The position numbers and the translations under genes were made by a program. A stretch of 64,000 bases of DNA from an uncultured Candidatus Actinomarina sp. (GTDB lineage Bacteria; Actinomycetota; Acidimicrobiia; Actinomarinales; Actinomarinaceae), in NCBI GenBank assembly GCA_902555985.1, contig CACDUI010000001.1, positions 67,291 to 131,290 on the forward strand, read 5' to 3'. Numbering within the stretch: the first letter of the stretch is position 1; the number at the start of each line of letters is the position of its first letter. Below are positions 7,903-35,895 of this stretch, piece after piece. The notes under the pieces are model-generated. The model worked only from the letters and a program-made list of their open reading frames with translations, was not told the origin of the DNA and did not search any database.

Positions 7903-8751
7903 CTAAATTTCTCTTTCTTCATTTAAGAAATCTTCGATTTGTTGAACAAGATTGTCTTCTGAAAAATTATCTTCAATGCTGACATCTGCTTCTTCAAGCT
8001 TAGAAACGTACTCAGCTAAATCTTCTGAATTCTCCATTGCTTTATTAATCTTAAGATCAAACTGTTGACCTTCACTTTGTATTCCAGAATCATCAATTTC
8101 AATTTTTAAAATATCTGAAGTTTTATTAAGGAGTGCGCTCATTCCTTTAGGATACCCACCACTACTTAAATAGTGAGGCACTGCTGCCCAAAGTCCTGCA
8201 GTTTCAATTCCACTATCTCGCAAATTTTGACCAACAACGCTTGTTATACCTGTAGGTCCAGAGTAATTAGGGTTAAGAACGTTGTGTCTTGAATGAAAAG
8301 TTGGGTCTCCACTAACACCGAATATTGGAACTGGCAATGTGTGTGCTACTTGTCCAAAAAAAGCACCTAATGTTACTGCTTTTTTAACTCCTAGCTCAAG
8401 TAGAGTATCAGAAATGTTCCTAGAGTAATCTTTCCACTTCATAGAAGGTTCTTCACCAAAAACAAGTATCAAGTCACTTTTTAACTTGTAGTCTTCGATT
8501 GAGTAAAAGGAAGTTTGAGGCCAGTGAAAGTTTCTTTCCCCAAATTCTTTAACTTCTACAACAGGTCTTCTCATTTGATAGTTGTAATATGAATCTGAGT
8601 TCAGCTCGGCAAACGGTTCTACATCATAAGTGCTACTCAAGTTTTCTACACATCCAGTTGCGGTGTTTCCTGCATCACTCCAACCCTCGAAAGCAAGAAT
8701 AGCTACTGGTTCTGATAAAAGTGGTTTTCTATACCAAACTACGTCTTCCAT
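7903..8751 (-). CDS. PAC2 (proteasome assembly chaperone 2)-family protein
   Basis: N-terminal VAILAFEGWSDAGN matches the conserved AFEGWNDAG block of bacterial PAC2-family proteins. Acidic C-terminus. Confidence 0.5.
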   Translation of the reverse strand: MEDVVWYRKPLLSEPVAILAFEGWSDAGNTATGCVENLSSTYDVEPFAELNSDSYYNYQMRRPVVEVKEFGERNFHWPQTSFYSIEDYKLKSDLILVFGEEPSMKWKDYSRNISDTLLELGVKKAVTLGAFFGQVAHTLPVPIFGVSGDPTFHSRHNVLNPNYSGPTGITSVVGQNLRDSGIETAGLWAAVPHYLSSGGYPKGMSALLNKTSDILKIEIDDSGIQSEGQQFDLKINKAMENSEDLAEYVSKLEEADVSIEDNFSEDNLVQQIEDFLNEEREI

Positions 8752-8794
8752 ATTTGAAGGATAATCTCTAAACAGATTTATTTAAGATTTAATT

Positions 8795-10876
8795 TTAGAG
8801 TTTTCTTGAAGAGTTGATGACAACAGAAATGCTTGAAAGGGCCATTGCTAATGCAGCTAAATTAGGCGTAATGATACCTATTACTGCAATAGGTATCATT
8901 AAAGTGTTGTAAATAAATGCGAGAAAAAGGTTTTGATATATTCTAAGTTTTGACTTTTTAGATAATTTAAATATTTTATTTATAGTTTCTAAACCACCCT
9001 TGTGAATTAAAATATCTCCAGAAACTTGTGCTATCTGACTACTTGAAGAAGTAGTCACACCAACATCCGCTTGCTTGATAGAAGGTGAATCATTAATCCC
9101 ATCACCGATAAAAATAACTTGATTGCTTTTTTGCTTATTTTTTATAAACTCTAATTTTTCTTCAGGGTTTTTACCAGAGTGGTATTCATCTATGTTATGA
9201 TTTTCAGCAAATTTTTTAACATTAATTTGTTTATCACCTGAGAGAATTATGATTTCTTTTTTTGACTTAAGTTCACCTAAAAAATCTGTTGAAACAGAGG
9301 ATTCTTCTTCCAAGTAAATAATATAGATTTTCTCATCGATTGTAATCTTCAAAGAGGATTCTTTTGACTCATTATTTTTTTGAATCTTAATATTTTGTCC
9401 TTCAACAACTCCTTCAATACCAACACCTGATTCTTCTTTTACGTCCTGGGCTGAAAGCAGAGTTATTTCTCTTACTTCAGCTTGATAAACTATACTTCTT
9501 GCTATTGGATGTTGTGAGAAATTTTCAACACTTGCAACTAATTGCAAGAACATTTCTTCAGGTATGCCTTCTACAGGCATTTCTATTTTTGATATTCTAA
9601 AAATTCCAGACGAAAGCGTTCCTGTTTTATCGAAGATCATTGTGTTAATATCGCCAAACTTTTGTAATATATCAAAATTCTTAAAAAGAAATCCACTTAT
9701 TTTACTTTTTGTTGCTGTTTTAAATAAAACAATTGGTGTCGCAAGACCCAATGCACATGGACATGCAATTACAAGAACAGCAATTGAATTTTTTAATGCT
9801 TCTATTAAAACAATGTCTTGAATGAAATATTTATATAAAAATGTACTAAAACTTATAAGTAAGACAGTTGGTACAAAAAATTGTGTTATTTTGTCTAGGG
9901 ACTTTTGAATTTCTGGTTTTGTGCCTTGAGCCTTCCTTATCAAATCTTCAATGATGTTGTATGTTGATTTTTGGTAAGATTCTTTAACTTCAACTTCAAG
10001 ACTTCCTTGCAAGTTGATGCTTCCACCAACTACTTTGTCACCCATGTTTTTTGGCAAGGGAATGGACTCGCCAGTTAATAAGCTTTCGTCAACTGTTGTT
10101 TCTCCCCTGATAACTTCCCCATCAACAGGAATAAGCTGACCTGCAAGAACCGTAAATACATCTTTGATTTGAACATCTTTTGTAGGTATTTCGATATTTT
10201 CACCACTTCTTTTAACAATTAGTGTTTTAGGCATTCTACTTTTAATCGATTCAGAAGTTTTTACAGACTCTTCAATAACCTTGTCTTCAACTGACTTTCC
10301 AATAAGTAAAAATGAAATAATAAATGCCCCAGTATCTAGAAACATTTTGTTTTCTCCTGCTGATGAAACTAGCTGAGCAGGCAAAATAGAAATCAGTAGA
10401 GAGCTCAAGCTCCCCAAGGAGATTAATGTGTCCATGTTAAAATCGAAACTTTTAATTTTCTTATAGGCAGAAATATGAAAATTTCTTCCTAAATAAAGGA
10501 CAACAAAAAAACCTACAACATAGGCTAAGCCGTCATAACCTGTTTCAAAAAGATACTTCAGCGACAAAGTCATTAATAAAGAAATTATCGGTAAAAGTAA
10601 CTTAAGTTTTATTTTTTTATCTTCAACCTCACCTGATGCTTCTTTAGCTTTATACCCTATTTTGTTCACAGATTTGATAATTTCTTCTAGGCTATTGTTC
10701 TCGTCTGAAATGTCAACAATTGCAGATTTTAGAGGAAAGCTTACAGATGCATCAAGAACATTTTCATTTTTGGAAAGAATGCGTTCAATACGTGCTGCAC
10801 AAGCAGCACAAGTCATACCATCAATATCAAGATTTATTGATTTAACTTGGCTGGACAACTGTGTAACCTTGTTCAT
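8795..10876 (-). CDS. copA: Copper-translocating P1B-type ATPase
   Basis: N-terminal HMA domain (GMTCAACAARIE), CPC transmembrane metal site (ACPCALG), DKTGTLS phosphorylation motif and GDGINDSP hinge. Confidence 0.9.
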   Translation of the reverse strand: MNKVTQLSSQVKSINLDIDGMTCAACAARIERILSKNENVLDASVSFPLKSAIVDISDENNSLEEIIKSVNKIGYKAKEASGEVEDKKIKLKLLLPIISLLMTLSLKYLFETGYDGLAYVVGFFVVLYLGRNFHISAYKKIKSFDFNMDTLISLGSLSSLLISILPAQLVSSAGENKMFLDTGAFIISFLLIGKSVEDKVIEESVKTSESIKSRMPKTLIVKRSGENIEIPTKDVQIKDVFTVLAGQLIPVDGEVIRGETTVDESLLTGESIPLPKNMGDKVVGGSINLQGSLEVEVKESYQKSTYNIIEDLIRKAQGTKPEIQKSLDKITQFFVPTVLLISFSTFLYKYFIQDIVLIEALKNSIAVLVIACPCALGLATPIVLFKTATKSKISGFLFKNFDILQKFGDINTMIFDKTGTLSSGIFRISKIEMPVEGIPEEMFLQLVASVENFSQHPIARSIVYQAEVREITLLSAQDVKEESGVGIEGVVEGQNIKIQKNNESKESSLKITIDEKIYIIYLEEESSVSTDFLGELKSKKEIIILSGDKQINVKKFAENHNIDEYHSGKNPEEKLEFIKNKQKSNQVIFIGDGINDSPSIKQADVGVTTSSSSQIAQVSGDILIHKGGLETINKIFKLSKKSKLRIYQNLFLAFIYNTLMIPIAVIGIITPNLAALAMALSSISVVINSSRKL

Positions 10877-11051
10877 CTAACATCTCGGATATGAGAGATA
10901 GGTCTAAATCACTAGTAGATTTTACATCTACTGATTTTTGGTCAATATCTACAGTCACACTTAATACAGACTCAATACTGCCAACAGTTGACTCAATAGT
11001 TTCTTTACAATGTCCACAGCTAATTTCAGGTACAGTAAATTTTGTTTCCAT
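10842..11051 (-). CDS. copZ: Copper chaperone CopZ (HMA domain)
   Basis: 69 aa with a CGHC metal-binding motif in a ferredoxin-like HMA fold. The 3' end overlaps the copA start. Confidence 0.75.
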   Translation of the reverse strand: METKFTVPEISCGHCKETIESTVGSIESVLSVTVDIDQKSVDVKSTSDLDLSLISEMLDEQGYTVVQPS

Positions 11052-11059
11052 GTGTTTAT

Positions 11060-11107
11060 TTTAATATTCTTGGGTTATAAAATAAGCCCCTTTTTAAAGG
11101 GGCTTAT
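11060..11107 (-). terminator. Intrinsic-terminator-like hairpin downstream of the small Cys/His gene (10-bp perfect stem)
   Basis: ATAAGCCCCT-TTTTAA-AGGGGCTTAT at 11082..11107. The stem halves are exact reverse complements. A U-rich run (UUUAUAA) follows on the minus-strand transcript. Between the hairpin and the gene the minus-strand 3'UTR is an unusual C-rich tract. Confidence 0.5.
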
Positions 11108-11153
11108 AGGAAACCTCATGGGGGAGATTTCGTTAAGGGGGGGTAGTTAAAAC

Positions 11154-11348
11154 TTAAGCTGTTTCTTGGAGAATTCTGCCTCTTACTCGCGGGTATTTTA
11201 CCGGAGCATGGTTGAAGCAATGATCTCTTTTGTTATAAATACTAAGTTGAGTACTGCAAGATTCATCTTTACATACTCTGCCCTGGTCAAAACTTTTTGA
11301 TGGTCTAATACCACCTTTTATTTGACTAGCCTTTAATCCGTCTGTCAT
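11154..11348 (-). CDS. Small conserved Cys/His protein, paralog 1 (C-x4-C-x12-C-x2-H zinc-ribbon-like)
   Basis: 64 aa. About 55% identical to the 67-aa ORF at 35631..35834, with a shared block RVC..D.C....S.YNK...CF.HAPV.YPRVRG. Basic N-terminus. Confidence 0.55.
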   Translation of the reverse strand: MTDGLKASQIKGGIRPSKSFDQGRVCKDESCSTQLSIYNKRDHCFNHAPVKYPRVRGRILQETA

Positions 11349-11365
11349 TTTTATCCTTTATATAC

Positions 11366-11385
11366 TTTGTGAATATATTCACAAG
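11366..11385. promoter_or_regulatory. Perfect 18-bp palindrome TTGTGAATATATTCACAA (CRP/FNR-type TGTGA-N6-TCACA) about 20 bp upstream of the small Cys/His gene
   Basis: TGTGA (11368..11372) - ATATAT - TCACA (11379..11383), with flanking TT/AA extending the symmetry. Lies in the 65-bp gap between the peptidase stop and the small gene's start. Confidence 0.45.
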
Positions 11386-11413
11386 GTTAACACTTTTATT
11401 GTAGATGGCAACC

Positions 11414-13312
11414 TTATTTTGACAAGTTTTTTTGTGTTAAAAATGCACTATCGTTCCATTTTCTACCTAAAAAGTTTTGAACCATGGTCTCAGCCGGAAT
11501 TGTTCCTCCAGGCATTAATATTTTATTTTTATAGTCAACACCAACTAACTTTGAAAGAACCCCCTCATTTTCAAACCTACTAAATAAATCATCACCTATT
11601 ATTTCAGCCCATATATACCCGTAATAAGCAGCATCATATCCACCAAGTAAATGACCGAAGGCTGCTAGATGGTTTATGTCTTTGGGATAAGATATAGTAG
11701 TAACTTCTTGAGCAGCATGCTCAATTTCTAAAAGACTATCTTTAAAGTTTTTTCCATGCAAATGTTGATCTGCAAGACCAAATGATACTTGTCTAAGCGT
11801 AAGTAAACTTACACCAATATTTTTAGACTTATTAAGCTTTTCACAAATTTCATCAGATAAGGTATCTCCAGATTCAATATGTTTTGAAATTCTTTTCATG
11901 CACTCTACTTTCCAAACCCAGTGTTCCATAATTTGACTTGGTGCTTCTACAAAGTCCCACTCACAGTTTGCGCCAACAAACCTTGTATATTTTGATTTAC
12001 CAATTCCATTGTGCAATACATGCCCAAATTCATGAAACAGAGTTTCAACTTCATCAAATGTCATTAACCCATCTCCCGTATTCGGGCTTGGGAAATTTGC
12101 AACCATTGAACATATTGGTAAGTCTTGTCTGTTGGACCCACCAGAGGAAATGTCGAAAACAGCTGCGTGGGTAAATTTTCCTTCTCTTGGGTAAAGGTCT
12201 AAATAAAAATAAGCAAGTTGTTGCCCGTCTTTTTCCCATAAAGACCATAGCTCAACATCTTTATGCCAGGCAGTTTTATTTGATTCAGGTTTTATTTCTA
12301 AATCAAAGACTTCCTCACAAACTTTAAACATTTCAGTTTTTACATCATGTATAAAGAAGAATTTTTTTAGTTCGCTATTTTCAATAGCACTTACTTTGCT
12401 TCTCTGTGCTGAAATAAAATATCGGATATCCCAAGGTGATATGTCATCAATGTCAATATTATCTATTACAAGCTCTTTTTTTTCTATTTCAGCTGCTTTT
12501 TGTAATTTAGAAATTAAACTTTCATACATTAAAGTGACATTTTCAGGTGATTTTGCCATTCTGTTCTGCAATCTATAATGAGCCCAAGTTTCATATCCAA
12601 ACAAGTTAGCCTTTTCATTTCTTAGCTGGACAGCCTCTTTCAAAATGGGACTATTTTCTTCTACAGCACGATTATTAAATGCTTTCCAAACAATCTCTCT
12701 CGTTGCTCTTATGCTGCAATTTTCCATGACTGCATTAATTTCTGGATATGCCATGGTTATAACAAATCTGTCTTCAATTTTTTTTAAGTTTTTAAGTTCA
12801 CTTGCACTTAACCCTTTTAATTCATTTTCAGAAAATAAGACTTCTGTCTTATCTTTTGCAATATTTTCTGAAAATGAAATGCTTAGATCAATAAGTTTTT
12901 TCTCAATTTCTGTCAGCCTAGCTTTTTTTTCATCTGAAAGACCATGTCCCGTATCTTTGAAATCAATTTCTAAATCTTTATGAAATGATTTTGATTCATC
13001 ATCCAAACTAAGGGTTTGAATTTCGCTAAATTTTTCGTATAGTTCTTTATCCTTAAATAATTCGAGCACAAAATTTTGTATTTTTGAATCAGCTTCATTT
13101 CCAAAATCTCTAATTTTTTCATCTGGGTGTACATCTCCCATAAAAGCAATACGTCCAGAAAGATCATGAATTGTACTTTCTAGTTCATCAAAATTACTTA
13201 ATACAATATTTTCAAATGATTTAATATTTTTGACTAATGTTTTACAGTCTTTAATTGTACTTTCTAAGTCTTTTTGTAATATTTCCAATGTTATGTCTGA
13301 ATAGTTAAACAC
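11414..13312 (-). CDS. M3-family zinc oligopeptidase (thimet oligopeptidase/Dcp/OpdA-like)
   Basis: 632 aa. HEFGHVLH zincin motif with a downstream Glu. Overall length and layout match M3 peptidases. Confidence 0.85.
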   Translation of the reverse strand: MFNYSDITLEILQKDLESTIKDCKTLVKNIKSFENIVLSNFDELESTIHDLSGRIAFMGDVHPDEKIRDFGNEADSKIQNFVLELFKDKELYEKFSEIQTLSLDDESKSFHKDLEIDFKDTGHGLSDEKKARLTEIEKKLIDLSISFSENIAKDKTEVLFSENELKGLSASELKNLKKIEDRFVITMAYPEINAVMENCSIRATREIVWKAFNNRAVEENSPILKEAVQLRNEKANLFGYETWAHYRLQNRMAKSPENVTLMYESLISKLQKAAEIEKKELVIDNIDIDDISPWDIRYFISAQRSKVSAIENSELKKFFFIHDVKTEMFKVCEEVFDLEIKPESNKTAWHKDVELWSLWEKDGQQLAYFYLDLYPREGKFTHAAVFDISSGGSNRQDLPICSMVANFPSPNTGDGLMTFDEVETLFHEFGHVLHNGIGKSKYTRFVGANCEWDFVEAPSQIMEHWVWKVECMKRISKHIESGDTLSDEICEKLNKSKNIGVSLLTLRQVSFGLADQHLHGKNFKDSLLEIEHAAQEVTTISYPKDINHLAAFGHLLGGYDAAYYGYIWAEIIGDDLFSRFENEGVLSKLVGVDYKNKILMPGGTIPAETMVQNFLGRKWNDSAFLTQKNLSK

Positions 13313-32066: not shown

Positions 32067-32456
32067 TTAGAAGGTTTTTCTTATTGTTTGATTATTTTTT
32101 TTAACGATTTCGTTCTTATAACTTTTATGAATTTCTTTTGCTTTATTTTTAGAATCAATTTTTTCACTTGAGATTTCATTTTCTAAAGAAATAATTTTTT
32201 CTTGTAGTTCTTCAATCTTATCTCTCATCTCATAAATTATTTTTATACCATCTAAGTTGATTCCTCGTTGAGACAGATTTTGAATTTGTATCAACTTATC
32301 TATATCTTCTTGAGAATAACGTCTTGTTCCCCCTCCAGTCCTGAACGGTTTTATTAACCCTTTTTCTTCATAAGTCCGAATTGTTTGTTGATGTATGCCC
32401 GAGAGTGTAGAGGCTACGGATATAAAGTATATTGCGTTTGACTCTTCACTACTCAT
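32067..32456 (-). CDS. hspR: Heat-shock repressor HspR (MerR family)
   Basis: MerR-type HTH (ISVASTLSGIHQQTIRTYEEKGLIKP) plus a C-terminal coiled coil. Last gene of the dnaK-grpE-dnaJ-hspR operon. Confidence 0.8.
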   Translation of the reverse strand: MSSEESNAIYFISVASTLSGIHQQTIRTYEEKGLIKPFRTGGGTRRYSQEDIDKLIQIQNLSQRGINLDGIKIIYEMRDKIEELQEKIISLENEISSEKIDSKNKAKEIHKSYKNEIVKKNNQTIRKTF

Positions 32457-33318
32457 CTAAATACTTTCTTGGAGAATCACCAGATTCAAACTGTTCTTTA
32501 AATTTTTCCAGGTGTTTTTTTGCAGACCTTGATAAGTCCACAGGGGGAGTAATAAATACTTTCACATATAAATCACCGGACCTTCTTCCTTGCGGAGCTA
32601 TACCCTCACCTCGAATTTTAAATGTTTTTCCGCTAGGTGTTCCAGATGGAATTTTTAATGTGACAGATTTTGTTAATGTGGGAATCTTAATGCTCGCACC
32701 TAGGGCAGCTTCAGTAAAGAGTAGGGGGATTTCTAAAATTAAGTCCATATTGCTTCTTTTAAAGAACTTATGAGGCTGAACGGAAACTTGTACCAATAGA
32801 TCTCCATCAGGTGCCCCAGCAGCTCCAGGACCTCCACGGCCCCTAAGCCTAATTACACTTCCATTATCTACACCTGCGGGAACTTTTATTTTTATCGATT
32901 CGTTTTCTATAGGTAGTACTACTTCAATACCAGAGGCAGCTTCAGCAAATGATATAGTGATATTAGTTTGGTATGTTTGACCCTTTCTTCTTCCGCCAAA
33001 ACCAAAAATATCACCAAGGTTTTCAAAGATATCTCCAAAGTCATCAACAGTAAAGCCCTGACTAGTGAAACCTCCAAAACCTGAACTTCCCATTGCTCTG
33101 ATTTGATCATATTCTTGACGTTTCCTATCATCGCCTAATACAGCGTGTGCTTCAGAAATTTCTTTAAACTTTTTTTCTGCTTCAATGTTTTCTGGGTTTA
33201 AATCCGGATGATTTTCCCTTGCTAATTTTTTGTAAGCTTTTTTTATTTCATCTGAGGTTGCATTTTGGGGTACGCCAAGTGTGGCATAGAAATTTTTATC
33301 TAGCCAATCTCTACTCAC
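32449..33318 (-). CDS. dnaJ: DnaJ-class co-chaperone (type II/CbpA-like: J domain + G/F region + C-terminal domains, no CxxCxGxG zinc finger)
   Basis: J domain with HPD (ENHPDLNP). G/F-rich linker. No cysteine repeats anywhere in the 289-aa protein. 8-nt overlaps with both grpE and hspR. Confidence 0.85.
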   Translation of the reverse strand: MSRDWLDKNFYATLGVPQNATSDEIKKAYKKLARENHPDLNPENIEAEKKFKEISEAHAVLGDDRKRQEYDQIRAMGSSGFGGFTSQGFTVDDFGDIFENLGDIFGFGGRRKGQTYQTNITISFAEAASGIEVVLPIENESIKIKVPAGVDNGSVIRLRGRGGPGAAGAPDGDLLVQVSVQPHKFFKRSNMDLILEIPLLFTEAALGASIKIPTLTKSVTLKIPSGTPSGKTFKIRGEGIAPQGRRSGDLYVKVFITPPVDLSRSAKKHLEKFKEQFESGDSPRKYLDE

Positions 33319-33799
33319 TTTTGACCTTAACCATGGCAGGTCGAATTAGGTTCCCTTGAAATTGATACCCTTTACGTAAAACTACATCAATTTTTTGTAT
33401 ATTACCTTCACCAGTATGTTCAACAGCCTCATGTAAAGCAGGGTCAAAATCCTCTCCAGCATCTCCAATTTCTGTGACTTGAAGACTTTCTAAAACTGAC
33501 GACAATAGGCTACTAAATGTTTCAACTTCTTTAGTAACTTTATCTTGAGACATAGCCATTTCAAAATTGTCTATGAGAGGAAATAAAGTATTTACAAAAT
33601 ACGCAATAGAAGCTGAGCCAATATTTTCTTTCTCTTTTTCAGATCTTTTTTTATAATTATCAAAGTCAGCAGCAAGTCTTAAGTAGTCATCTTTTATTTT
33701 TTCGTACTGAGAAAGAGGGACGCTTGATTCATCAGCTTCTGTATTTTCATTTTCAGAAGAATCATCAGGTTCTTCAGTATGCTCCTCTTCGTTACTCAT
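33311..33799 (-). CDS. grpE: Nucleotide exchange factor GrpE
   Basis: Acidic N-terminus, coiled coil, C-terminal beta domain ([19 protein letters not shown]). Position between dnaK and dnaJ. Confidence 0.9.
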
Positions 33800-35600
33800 C
33801 TTCTATGACTTCACCTTCTACCACGTCATCGGATTCACTTGAAGACGGATCAGGAGTATCATTTTGTGTTTCTGAATATAACTTTTCAGCAAATGATTGA
33901 CTAGCTTTAGAAAGCTCTTCAATAGCAACCTTGAGATCATTAACTTCGTTATCTTCATTTTCTAGGAGTTTCTTTAGATTTTCATTTGCATCAGTAATCG
34001 ATTTAATCTCATCATCAGTTGCTTTATCTTTGTTATCTTCCAACATTTTTTCTGTTGAAGTAACCATTCCTTCAGCCATATTTCTTGTCTCGACAAGATC
34101 TTTCTTTTTTGCATCTTCATTTGCATGTTGTTCTGCATCTTTTATCATTCTGTCTATCTCATCGTCTTCTAAAGCAGTTCCACCAGTAATTGTTATTGCT
34201 TGCTCCTTACCAGTGCCAAGGTCTTTAGCATTTACATTGACAATTCCATTTGCATCAATATCAAAAGTTACCTCTATCTGAGGTGTACCAGCCATTGCTG
34301 CAGGGATATCGGTTAATGTGAATCTGCCCAAAGATTTGTTACCAGAGGCCATATCTCTTTCACCTTGCAAGATGTGTATTTCAACCTGAGTTTGATTGTT
34401 TTCAGCAGTACTAAATACTTCTGACCTCTTAGTTGGAATAGTAGTGTTTCTTTCGATCATCTTTGTCATGATTCCACCTTTTGTTTCAACACCAAGTGTA
34501 AGTGGAGTGACATCGAGCAAAAGAACATCCTTTACATCACCTTTAAGAACGCCAGCTTGTATGGCAGCACCAGAAGCAACAACTTCGTCTGGGTTTACAC
34601 CTTTATGAGGATCTTTACCAGTTAAAGATTTAACAAGCTCTTGCACTGATGGCATTCTTGTAGAACCTCCAACTAATATTATGTGATTTATATCTGAAAA
34701 TTTCATTCCAGCATCAGACAAAGCATTTTCAACAGGTGCTTTTGTACGGTCTACTAAATCAGCTGTAATTTTTTCAAATTCAGACCTACTTAACTTTTCT
34801 AATAAATGTTGGGGACCAGCATCATTAGCAGTAATGAAAGGTAAATTAATTTCTGTTTCACTTGTAGAAGAAAGTTCAATTTTTGCTTTCTCTGCACCTT
34901 CTTGAATTCTTTGGATAGCCATTTTGTCTTTTGATAAATCAATGCCTGTTGATGATTTAAATTTATCAATTAACCAGTCCATAACTCTCTGATCCCAGTC
35001 ATCACCACCTAGTTTTGAATCACCAGAGGTTGACTTTACTTCAAAGACTCCTTCAGAAATTTCCAGAATAGAAACATCAAATGTACCACCACCCAGATCA
35101 AATACTAAAATTTTCTGATCTTGATTATTTTCTAAACCATACGCAAGTGATGCAGCTGTAGGTTCGTTAATGATTCTTAAAACGTTTAATCCAGCTATCT
35201 GACCTGCCTCTTTAGTCGCTTGTCTTTCTGCGTCATTAAAATATGCAGGCACAGTAATAACAGCTTCAGTAACGTCATCTCCTAAGTATGCTTCAGCATC
35301 CCTTTTTAATTTTTGAAGTATTCTTGCTGATATTTCTTGTGGAGTATAATCTTTCCCTTCAAAGCTTTCTTTCCAATCAGTTCCGATGTGTCTTTTAATT
35401 GATCTTATGGTGTTATCAGGATTTGTTATTGCTTGTCTTTTTGCAAGCTCTCCAACCAGTACTTCTTCAGACTTGAAAGCAACTATGGATGGAGTCGTCC
35501 TATTTCCTTCTGCATTTGCAATTACAGTTGGTTCGCCGCCTTCTAATACTGCGACAACACTATTTGTCGTTCCTAAATCAATTCCTACAGCTTTTCCCAT
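33792..35600 (-). CDS. dnaK: Chaperone DnaK (Hsp70)
   Basis: [16 protein letters not shown] and the VxDLGGGT motifs. 602 aa. Acidic EEVD-like C-terminus. Confidence 0.97.
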
Positions 35601-35630: not shown

Positions 35631-35834
35631 TTATGAGATAGGTTCTTGTTCTCTTGGTAAATGGCCTCTTACTCTTGGGTAGGAGACAGGTGCATGAAGA
35701 AAACAAAATTTCTTTTTGTTGTATACACTTATTACTGTTTCACAAGCATCAAATGCGCATACACGACCTGTAGTGTATTTTTTTGACCTTCTAACACCAG
35801 GCTTAACTTGAGATGCAGTTAATGTTCCGCTCAT
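35631..35834 (-). CDS. Small conserved Cys/His protein, paralog 2. First gene of the dnaK operon, ending 30 bp upstream of the dnaK start
   Basis: 67 aa, MSGTLTASQVKPGVRRSKKYTTGRVCAFDACETVISVYNKKKFCFLHAPVSYPRVRGHLPREQEPIS. Shares the C-x4-C-x12-C-x2-H block with the ORF at 11154..11348. Confidence 0.55.
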   Translation of the reverse strand: MSGTLTASQVKPGVRRSKKYTTGRVCAFDACETVISVYNKKKFCFLHAPVSYPRVRGHLPREQEPIS

Positions 35835-35869
35835 TTTTTACCTTTCTAATCTATACTTTATTATATATA

Positions 35870-35895
35870 AAATCTATGTAAATTTACTTAGATTT
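35870..35895. promoter_or_regulatory. 26-bp near-perfect palindrome AAATCTATGTAAATTTACTTAGATTT (24/26 symmetric), about 35 bp upstream of the dnaK-operon first gene
   Basis: The two halves AAATCTA.GTAAA / TTTAC.TAGATTT are reverse complements except at one symmetric position pair. Lies in the 165-bp AT-rich divergent region between the dnaK operon and proC. Confidence 0.45.

Follow-up and report, generated by a model that had tools for sequence, protein, structure and literature searches.

Two small Cys3His proteins encoded beside the copper and dnaK genes of a Candidatus Actinomarina genome and the Acidimicrobiia family to which they belong

Why would a streamlined genome keep two copies of a tiny gene, one of them beside copper genes and the other at the head of the dnaK operon? 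The question is raised by a contig of an uncultured Candidatus Actinomarina species, of which a stretch of 64,000 nucleotides with a G+C content of 33%, hereafter the window, was analysed. The original prediction was that the two genes are functional paralogues of no known family, that they encode a Cys/His metal site and that each is associated with a stress operon. Both open reading frames are present on the minus strand and are called X1 and X2 here; all coordinates are those of the window.

11,154-11,348, minus strand: X1, a basic Cys3His mini-protein of 64 amino acids, pI 9.7, with the C-terminal end ...PRVRGRILQETA (open reading frame list)
35,631-35,834, minus strand: X2, a basic protein of 67 amino acids, pI 10.0, paralogue of X1 and first gene of the dnaK operon (open reading frame list)

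Each gene has a purine-rich ribosome binding site 5-8 nt upstream of its ATG. BLASTP aligned the two proteins without gaps at 33 of 62 positions identical (53%), with 71% positives and an E value of 1e-25, close to the identity of about 55% that had been predicted. The conserved block RVC..C.T..S.YNK...CF.HAPV.YPRVRG and the spacing C-x4-C-x12-C-x2-H, both claimed previously, are legible in the two translations, the ligands of X1 being C26-x4-C31-x12-C44-x2-H47. The back-translated motif pattern matched twice in the 64-kb window and not at all in 100 shuffles, and a family HMM run against the six-frame translation of the window identified X1 (E 9e-29) and X2 (E 2e-26) as the sole copies.

An exhaustive HMMER search at E ≤ 1e-3 showed that the family comprises 373 representative clusters at 50% identity, nearly all of them 60-80 residues long and almost wholly from Acidimicrobiia. 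Orthologues of X1 in six other Actinomarinales genomes were 93-100% identical. With synonymous sites almost saturated, dN/dS was 0.006-0.05 for the Actinomarinales orthologues of X1 and 0.015-0.175 for those of X2, so that neither an absence of homologues elsewhere nor a dN/dS near 1 was found. Given this strong purifying selection and wide conservation, X1 and X2 are considered to be functional, true paralogues, as the duplication of so small a gene had led the original prediction to suppose. A distance tree grouped the X sequences by gene context into several paralogous clades, at least three of them within Actinomarinales and two of these in the window; at least one Actinomarinales genome (L052) carries a third X paralogue elsewhere in the genome.

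Neither X1 nor X2 had a match at E ≤ 10 in Pfam or NCBIfam. Scans of Pfam, NCBIfam and PHROGs with X1, X2 and 114 relatives gave only sub-threshold matches to cysteine motifs, and a profile search of PDB sequences with the family gave nothing under E 0.4. The C-terminal extension of the longer members matched no known domain, a plasmid search gave no match and a phage search gave only weak matches in Streptomyces phages. Every named member is entered in the databases as 'hypothetical protein' and a literature search found no description of the family. The claim that the pair has no known family is thus upheld by the Pfam, NCBIfam and PDB searches, and X1 and X2 are members of an undescribed family of marine and soil Acidimicrobiia. 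These bacteria, Candidatus Actinomarina included, are among the most abundant Actinobacteria of ocean and soil and almost none have been cultured. A conserved mini-protein left blank by automated annotation has thereby been named, delimited and placed in a regulatory context.

The family consensus is R-V-C-x3-G-C-x-T-x-L-S-x-Y-N-x4-C-x2-H-x-P-x3-P-R-x-R-G and the median pI is 10.1. Across 114 diverse members C31, C44, H47 and G57 are invariant, while conservation is 90% or more at R24, C26, S36, Y38, N39, R54 and R56. The single Cys3His site is the invariant core of the family, and its ligand pattern suggests that it binds a metal. Of the metal site originally envisaged, one Cys3His site conserved in the 114 members stands; the two C-x2-C knuckles and beta-hairpins that make up a ribosomal zinc ribbon were not found. 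The structure prediction that had been proposed as a check for a treble-clef or zinc-ribbon fold yielded an AlphaFold2 model of the family alignment with a mean pLDDT of 84.6, but the model was virtually devoid of secondary structure and no fold could be matched.

The genomic surroundings of the family were obtained from a species-level scan using one genome per GTDB species and a 95-nt degenerate DNA pattern, which gave at least 120 loci and is a sample rather than a census. Open reading frames were called in the loci and clustered, and the clusters were named by Pfam and NCBIfam; neighbour clusters c7, c8 and c10, which look like spurious antisense frames of high-GC DNA, were set aside. Among the matches listed there were 80 record titles, of which 49 named Acidimicrobiia lineages (Acidimicrobiales, Actinomarina, OCS155, Microthrix), 21 gave Actinomycetota or Actinomycetes only, 6 gave 'bacterium' and 4 carried other labels, probably as a result of binning errors. 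Cultured genera of the class Actinomycetes were absent from the matches listed, which came from MAGs only, one of them labelled Ca. Microthrix.

X is usually the 5' member of a co-oriented operon, and its commonest context is sigH-rsrA-X-Zincin_2 peptidase-tilS. About 43 of the 119 loci among the matches listed had sigH and/or rsrA upstream of X, or Zincin_2 (DUF2342)-tilS downstream, and in the loci examined further tilS was followed by hpt and folE-folP-folB. Where rsrA was called, the gap between it and X was mostly 5-90 nt, and independent gene calls supported the order sigH-rsrA-X. The best model for the neighbouring sigma factor was SigH_actino (TIGR02947) with 244 bits, just below its cut-off of 251.6, and the neighbouring anti-sigma factor lay above the RsrA equivalog cut-off (77 bits vs 62.5). 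X itself has no match to the zf-HC2 pattern (H-x3-C-x2-C) of the ZAS anti-sigma factors RsrA and RshA, the true RsrA being the adjacent gene. The clade of X1 has the context M3 peptidase-X-(CsoR or MerR)-copZ-copA-PAC2 across Acidimicrobiia at 50-65% identity, a gene order seen with Pfam labels in contigs L001-L008 and in about 30 genome loci among the matches listed. The order X-dnaK-grpE-dnaJ-hspR was found in Actinomarinales only, in 6 of the 119 loci among the matches listed; an X2 homologue of 80% identity (P0014) was recovered in six places, likewise ahead of dnaK. A recurrent place upstream of dnaK, suggested as something to look for across the family, is thus limited to Actinomarinales. 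The association with stress operons is nevertheless real and wider than had been claimed, the commonest home of X being directly after sigH-rsrA and furnished with SigH-type promoter motifs.

Since X is small, very basic and confidently predicted to be extended without secondary structure, as are some ribosomal proteins, it could be a ribosome- or RNA-associated mini-protein comparable to type-Z S14, L31 or L36, or could replace one of these under stress. SigR of Streptomyces controls a zinc-ribbon ribosomal paralogue, which would suit such a role. However, X1, X2 and 114 members matched no ribosomal family, the ligand spacing differs from that of C-x2-C ... C-x2-C ribbons, none of the 119 loci among the matches listed lay in a ribosomal operon and the presence of at least three paralogous clades within Actinomarinales also speaks against it. 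The resemblance to type-Z S14 put forward originally found no profile match and no pair of C-x2-C knuckles, and a ribosomal function now appears very improbable.

The consensus of SigH/SigR promoters in Streptomyces is GGAAT-N18-19-GTT (PMC9205884) and close variants are used in Mycobacterium and Corynebacterium (PMC3489674). Of 113 X genes in loci among the matches listed, 63 had GGAA-N17-20-GTT in the preceding 160 nt, compared with 3.1 ± 1.7 genes in shuffled controls; the background was 0.036 matches per 160 nt over the loci, and 31 of 729 other genes had the motif. As a positive control, the search recovered, ahead of rsrA and within the 3' end of sigH, the sequence GGAAGAA-N16-GTT, a site matching the mapped SigH-dependent rshA promoter of C. 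glutamicum, TGGAAGA ... TGTTAAA (PMC3489674). The motif was distributed over the clades as follows.

Clade Ia (...PRTRGKKIA): 23 of 28, with the GTT end usually 9 nt from the ATG and a variable spacer
Clade Ic (sigH locus): 14 of 15, within the 3' end of rsrA
Clade Ib: 5 of 10, 54-124 nt upstream of the ATG
X1-clade relatives: 15 of 27, 29-42 nt upstream of the ATG
Other contexts: 5 of 21, 33-84 nt upstream of the ATG
Actinomarinales X1: 1 of 6, 131 nt upstream and within the peptidase gene
Actinomarinales X2: 0 of 6

The position of the motif in clade Ia, ending 9 nt from the ATG, implies a leaderless transcript. The motif of clade Ic lies in the rsrA coding sequence with a conserved spacer and may therefore be a coding artefact. 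X genes placed after sigH-rsrA and preceded by GGAAT-N18-GTT-type motifs resemble the SigH/SigR-RsrA regulon (PMC9205884, PMC3489674), whereas in the window no SigH motif was found in promoter position upstream of X1 or X2. Only two sigma factors and very few paralogues have been reported for genomes of Actinomarinales (PMC7771536). On the motif counts, the X family is a candidate member of the SigH/SigR stress regulon outside Actinomarinales and would be an addition to a well-studied stress circuit. In the literature searched, no comparable small Cys3His gene is known to us as a member of this regulon in Streptomyces, Mycobacterium or Corynebacterium. Small zinc proteins of actinobacterial stress regulons are themselves known; the family and its regulatory and evolutionary picture are new.

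Taken further, X might be a lineage-specific effector of the SigH/RsrA disulfide-stress system, although we regard this as doubtful. The effector would be a zinc switch of about 60 residues with a Cys3His site, made from leaderless SigH transcripts, which upon thiol oxidation would directly modulate a core machine (RNA polymerase/sigma, the DnaK system or a metalloprotease) and would be indispensable enough for a 1-Mb genome with two sigma factors to keep two or three copies of it rewired to HspR and another repressor.

The features around X2 bear on the rewiring.

32,067-35,600, minus strand: dnaK-grpE-dnaJ-hspR (dnaK 33,792-35,600, grpE 33,311-33,799, dnaJ 32,449-33,318, hspR 32,067-32,456), co-oriented, overlapping and 3' of X2 (open reading frame lists; Pfam labels in related contigs)
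35,855-35,882, minus strand: candidate sigma-70-like promoter of the X2-dnaK operon, TTTACA-16-TAAAGT, 9 of 12 positions (consensus scan)
35,870-35,895, no strand assigned: inverted repeat AAATCTAAGTAAA/TTTACATAGATTT over the -35 hexamer, HAIR-like, presumed HspR operator

The stop codon of X2 is 30 nt ahead of the dnaK ATG (35,600) and no terminator was found between the two genes, in agreement with the earlier placement of X2 as the first gene of the dnaK-grpE-dnaJ-hspR operon. The repeat TCTAAGT-N6/7-ACTTAGA is conserved in nine Actinomarinales upstream regions. The HAIR operator is CTTGAGT-N7-ACTCAAG, with which the X2 repeat agrees at four of seven positions per arm. The gene order dnaK-grpE-dnaJ-hspR and an inverted repeat over the promoter are as in the HspR/HAIR dnaK operon of Actinobacteria; X2 as an extra first gene and the sequence of the arms are where the present operon differs. 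The repeat was tentatively assigned to HspR because hspR is the last gene of the operon, and it is most simply read as an HspR operator. This would suggest that a streamlined genome may keep a stress gene after the driving sigma factor has been lost by attaching it to the dnaK operon.

At the other locus X1 is 102 nt upstream of copZ.

7,903-13,312, minus strand: X1 neighbourhood with M3 peptidase (11,414-13,312), X1, copZ (10,842-11,051), copA (8,795-10,876) and a PAC2-family protein (7,903-8,751) (open reading frame list)
11,398-11,425, minus strand: candidate sigma-70-like promoter of X1, TTGTCA-16-TACAAT, 10 of 12 positions (consensus scan)
11,384-11,411, minus strand: second candidate X1 promoter, TTGCCA-16-TAACCT, the one kept among orthologues
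11,367-11,384, no strand assigned: perfect 18-bp palindrome TTGTGAATATATTCACAA between the X1 promoter and the ribosome binding site, core TGTGA-N6-TCACA, CRP/FNR-like
11,087-11,101, minus strand: terminator-like intrinsic hairpin and T-run between X1 and copZ (terminator scan)

An alignment of seven X1 upstream regions showed conservation of TTGCAT/TTGCCA ... TAANCT. The palindrome occurs once in the window and is invariant in seven of seven Actinomarinales genomes, where its flanks and the synonymous sites have diverged. Folded as RNA it gave -6.6 kcal/mol with a z-score of -0.98. This fold is weak and a DNA operator is therefore more likely than an RNA structure; the RNA hairpin was rejected.

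The adjacency of X1 to copZ-copA invites the idea that X1 is a copper-responsive regulator of these genes in a streamlined genome without a CsoR or MerR gene at the locus. Other bacteria have a regulator in the slot that X1 occupies, the protein offers Cys and His as ligands, and between X1 and copZ the window carries neither a CsoR nor a CueR gene. The terminator-like hairpin between X1 and copZ, however, indicates that X1 is monocistronic. In relatives a MerR or CsoR regulator gene is often found between X and copZ, so that orthologues of X1 coexist with the dedicated regulators; two loci (L059 and L068) keep the M3 peptidase-X-PAC2 order with copZ-copA missing, and X is inverted in three others (L024, L099 and L131). 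Given that the cop genes are optional and their regulators CsoR and MerR are separate genes, the copper module looks like an insert and X1 not like its regulator. Orthologues of X1 moreover have SigH-type promoter motifs and the paralogue X2 has no copper link. On the terminator, the coexisting regulators, the cop-less loci and the lack of a copper link for X2, a role of X1 in copper regulation was rejected as scarcely credible. The original observation of X1 beside copZ-copA is thus correct as to adjacency, while a functional tie is not supported, X1 having its own candidate promoter and terminator, relatives having CsoR or MerR and some loci being cop-less.

A broader connection with metals would have X produced in response to thiol or copper stress as a buffer or metallochaperone, capturing zinc from oxidised sites or passing it to the neighbouring zinc peptidases. 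The Cys3His site, the zinc metallopeptidase neighbours in two clades (M3 and Zincin_2), copZ-copA beside X1 and a cupredoxin-like membrane protein near X, between it and Zincin_2 in loci L026 and L118, are all consistent with this, and RsrA itself is reported to lose zinc when oxidised. Against it, a single site in 64 residues would buffer poorly, the strong conservation of the surface beyond the ligands points to a specific partner, the cop genes are not a constant part of the locus and the place of X2 before dnaK has no metal logic. A buffering or zinc-delivering function is considered improbable.

The reading that we tentatively prefer, with low confidence, is that X is a stress-induced zinc-thiolate mini-protein which acts in protein quality control in a Ruc-like manner. 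Ruc of M. tuberculosis (Rv0991c) is a small zinc protein whose gene neighbours include dnaK, grpE, clpB and ftsH and whose activity is switched on by oxidation (PMC7448276). Quality control is favoured on this precedent and because X has proteostasis neighbours in three clades independently (Zincin_2 peptidase; M3 peptidase and PAC2; dnaK-grpE-dnaJ). A Ruc-type neighbourhood is present both where X2 precedes dnaK-grpE-dnaJ-hspR and, in other clades, beside Zincin_2, M3 peptidase and PAC2. Like Ruc and Hsp33, X would be a small zinc protein with a largely disordered remainder, situated near dnaK/grpE/dnaJ and protease genes, whose thiolates could free zinc when oxidised (PMC7448276). X would be produced upon thiol oxidation or protein unfolding; its four ligands would hold Zn(II) and so shape an otherwise unstructured basic peptide, and the thiolate-rich site would be a switch that oxidants or thiophilic metals could open. 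X would then act on a conserved quality-control partner, either the DnaK system or the neighbouring metallopeptidases, in a mode resembling that of Ruc and Hsp33, redox chaperones that depend on zinc, though with an unrelated fold. The ECF sigma factor would have been lost in Actinomarinales and the X genes rewired to HspR and another repressor. The protein is short and easily synthesised, which suits it to tests of zinc-thiolate switching.

There are points to be set against the quality-control reading. The zinc ribbon of Ruc is N-terminal and of the C4 type, CxxC-N17-CxxC, it is followed by a variable, hydrophilic, disordered tail, and the protein is pan-bacterial (PMC7448276), whereas X has a central C-x4-C-x12-C-x2-H with both flanks conserved and is a strongly basic protein restricted to Acidimicrobiia; X and Ruc showed no detected similarity in sequence or fold. 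The sigH neighbourhood is weak evidence, since X is found there where sigH-rsrA adjoins the housekeeping genes tilS-hpt-folE. Zincin_2 is itself uncharacterised, only the 15 of 27 X1-clade relatives noted above have the SigH motif, and the sigma factor model scored just below its curated cut-off. The extended invariant surface set R, S, Y, N, R, R and G is more like specific recognition of a nucleic acid or a single protein than a promiscuous holdase. The hydrophilic basic sequence and the invariant Arg/Tyr/Asn surface fit a nucleic acid or RNA polymerase partner better than they fit a holdase, and for this reason a small transcription factor, binding nucleic acid or RNA polymerase, is considered almost as probable as the quality-control reading.

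Such a factor would bind DNA or RNA polymerase/sigma through its zinc knuckle and basic flanks, as Wbl and RbpA proteins do in other Actinobacteria, and would tune the stress regulon, the target of either paralogue perhaps being the operon downstream of it. The high median pI, the invariant Arg, Tyr and Asn, the PR-x-RG tail, the usual position of X at the 5' side of its operon and the conserved palindromes upstream of X1 and X2 are in keeping with this. RbpA is under stress-sigma control and in Streptomyces it is a SigR target with a Cys3His zinc site. RbpA and Wbl proteins are, like X, small, Cys-rich and phylum-restricted, with basic tails, and are metal-binding partners of RNA polymerase/sigma. 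Their ligand patterns, C-xn-C-x2-C-x5-C for the Fe-S cluster of Wbl and C-x3-H ... C-x2-C for Streptomyces RbpA, are both unlike that of X, which also has no sigma-interacting helices. The N-termini of X and RbpA look alike by eye (MADRVLRGSRLG vs MADTLKGNRLRGG); however, hhalign of X with the RbpA sequences of M. tuberculosis and S. coelicolor gave a probability of 0.1%, and with an N-terminal profile RbpA ranked about 100th of 20,000 shuffles, so the resemblance was discarded. More generally, searches of Pfam, NCBIfam and PDB gave no significant similarity to families binding DNA or RNA polymerase. The repeat at X2 is better explained by HspR and the palindrome at X1 by a CRP-family protein, and the cop genes of relatives already have CsoR or MerR.

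Weak echoes of the knuckle were seen in other proteins. The first site of the plant SBP domain, EsV-1-7, CxC6, WRKY19 and the phage family phrog_10853 have the ligand order C-x4-C-x(12-16)-C-x2-H and part of the register of X (C-x3-G-C ... L-S ... Y-x5-C-x2-H). Sub-threshold matches to SBP chains, which are DNA-binding, had E values of 0.6-1.4 in the register C-x3-G-C-x-[AT]-x-L-S ... Y-x5-C-x2-H, the range being 0.4-1.4 when the RAR1 CHORD domain is included. EsV-1-7, CxC6 and WRKY19 gave sub-threshold Pfam matches at E 0.005-0.09 per member and phrog_10853 gave E 0.003-0.05, its Streptomyces phage members carrying GRIRVCATSGCDTRLSRYNDGKVCQKC amid recombination genes. These matches add something to the idea of a transcription factor. 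However, the SBP domain spans about 76 residues and requires a C2HC site besides the first, and its loop is four residues longer, whereas the ligands of X total four. No family of this group is bacterial-chromosomal or stress-linked, their matches are below family thresholds and homology with X is not established. X may work like Ruc or like Wbl/RbpA, yet it belongs to neither, nor to type-Z S14, ZAS or SBP, the defining features of which it lacks. Should RNA polymerase or DnaK turn out to be its target, X would represent a novel type of small stress modulator.

Finally, the 5' leaders of the X1-clade relatives were folded. RNAalifold gave no consensus from a poor automatic alignment; single-sequence folds showed a GGCCC...GGGCC hairpin around the ribosome binding site, with modest z-scores (median -1.0).

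The genes for both Cys3His mini-proteins, X1 beside copZ-copA and X2 at the head of the dnaK-grpE-dnaJ-hspR operon, are preceded by a symmetrical sequence.

Window 35870-35895: inverted repeat AAATCTAAGTAAA/TTTACATAGATTT, ahead of the X2-dnaK operon and covering its -35 hexamer.
Window 11367-11384: perfect 18-bp palindrome TTGTGAATATATTCACAA, upstream of X1, with a CRP/FNR-type core TGTGA-N6-TCACA.

The X2-dnaK repeat is kept in nine genomes in the form TCTAAGT-N6/7-ACTTAGA. Compared with HAIR, the classical HspR operator, the repeat of the window agrees in part only, and probably represents an AT-rich form of this operator. The dnaJ product of the same operon (window 32449-33318) is a protein of 289 aa without the CXXCXGXG zinc-finger domain, whereas the DnaJ encoded at the same operon position in the related Actinomarinales contigs L009-L013 has 359 aa and contains this domain (PF00684).

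The palindrome occurs once within the window and was found to be invariant ahead of X1 in the seven Actinomarinales genomes compared. A different element was observed in the high-GC Acidimicrobiia, where the 5' leaders of X1-clade genes share a candidate hairpin, GGCCC-N9-11-GGGCC, 35 nt before the X start (loci L021, L023, L045, L080, L094, L103, L106, L112, L122, L126 and L130). The ribosome-binding site falls within the loop and 3' arm of this candidate hairpin, for which single-sequence folding gave modest z-scores, median -1.0.

No CsoR- or MerR-type copper-sensing regulator was found at the copZ-copA locus (window 8795-11153), whereas in other Acidimicrobiia such a regulator is placed between X and copZ. 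If the longest copA reading frame is taken, copA and copZ overlap by 35 nt (10842-10876). In most of the contigs L001-L008, a gene of 29 aa matching COX24_C (PF08213) is present near the X1-type locus, some 3.5-4 kb downstream of X, though it was not called in L008. Its product is interpreted as bS22, a very small ribosomal protein.

Loci typical of Acidimicrobiia were also encountered in bins labelled Methanobacteriota, Kiloniellales and Acidobacteriota (L061, L065, L045, L081). The member at L061 shares 95% identity with X1 as well as its gene neighbourhood, and these four contigs are probably mis-binned or mislabelled.

A third Actinomarinales paralogue of 67 aa, ...PKTYPRVRGYITLPINDDGGDK, is encoded in OCS155 bacterium AG-333-G23 (L052, 1761-1964); it adjoins neither dnaK nor copZ, and neighbour clustering left the surrounding genes without a name. 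Seven longer members of 103-123 aa (P0075, P0078, P0099, P0107, P0142, P0170 and P0180) carry a C-terminal extension which contains an additional C-x2-C ... H ... C pattern and gave no match to a known domain. Streptomyces phage Circinus gp68 (L135, 1348-1629; phrog_10853) is a 93-aa protein with two zinc knuckles predicted from its sequence, the second of which, RVCATSGCDTRLSRYNDGKVCQKC, is X-like. Its gene is flanked by one for an exonuclease of the Cas4 family and one for a RuvC-like resolvase.

At the sigH-rsrA-X loci, GGAAGAA-N16-GTT is conserved within the 3' end of the sigH coding sequence, ∼40-70 nt ahead of rsrA (loci among L015-L133, e.g. L028, L030 and L102). This motif agrees with the rshA promoter of Corynebacterium glutamicum, which has been mapped and depends on SigH (PMC3489674), and therefore an internal feedback promoter in sigH may be ancient in Actinobacteria. 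In L026 and L118, X and the Zincin_2 peptidase gene are separated by an inserted gene, which encodes a secreted and membrane-anchored cupredoxin-like protein with a C-x2-H-x4-M motif. Small acidic single-pass membrane proteins (clusters c11 and c24) take its place in other genomes.
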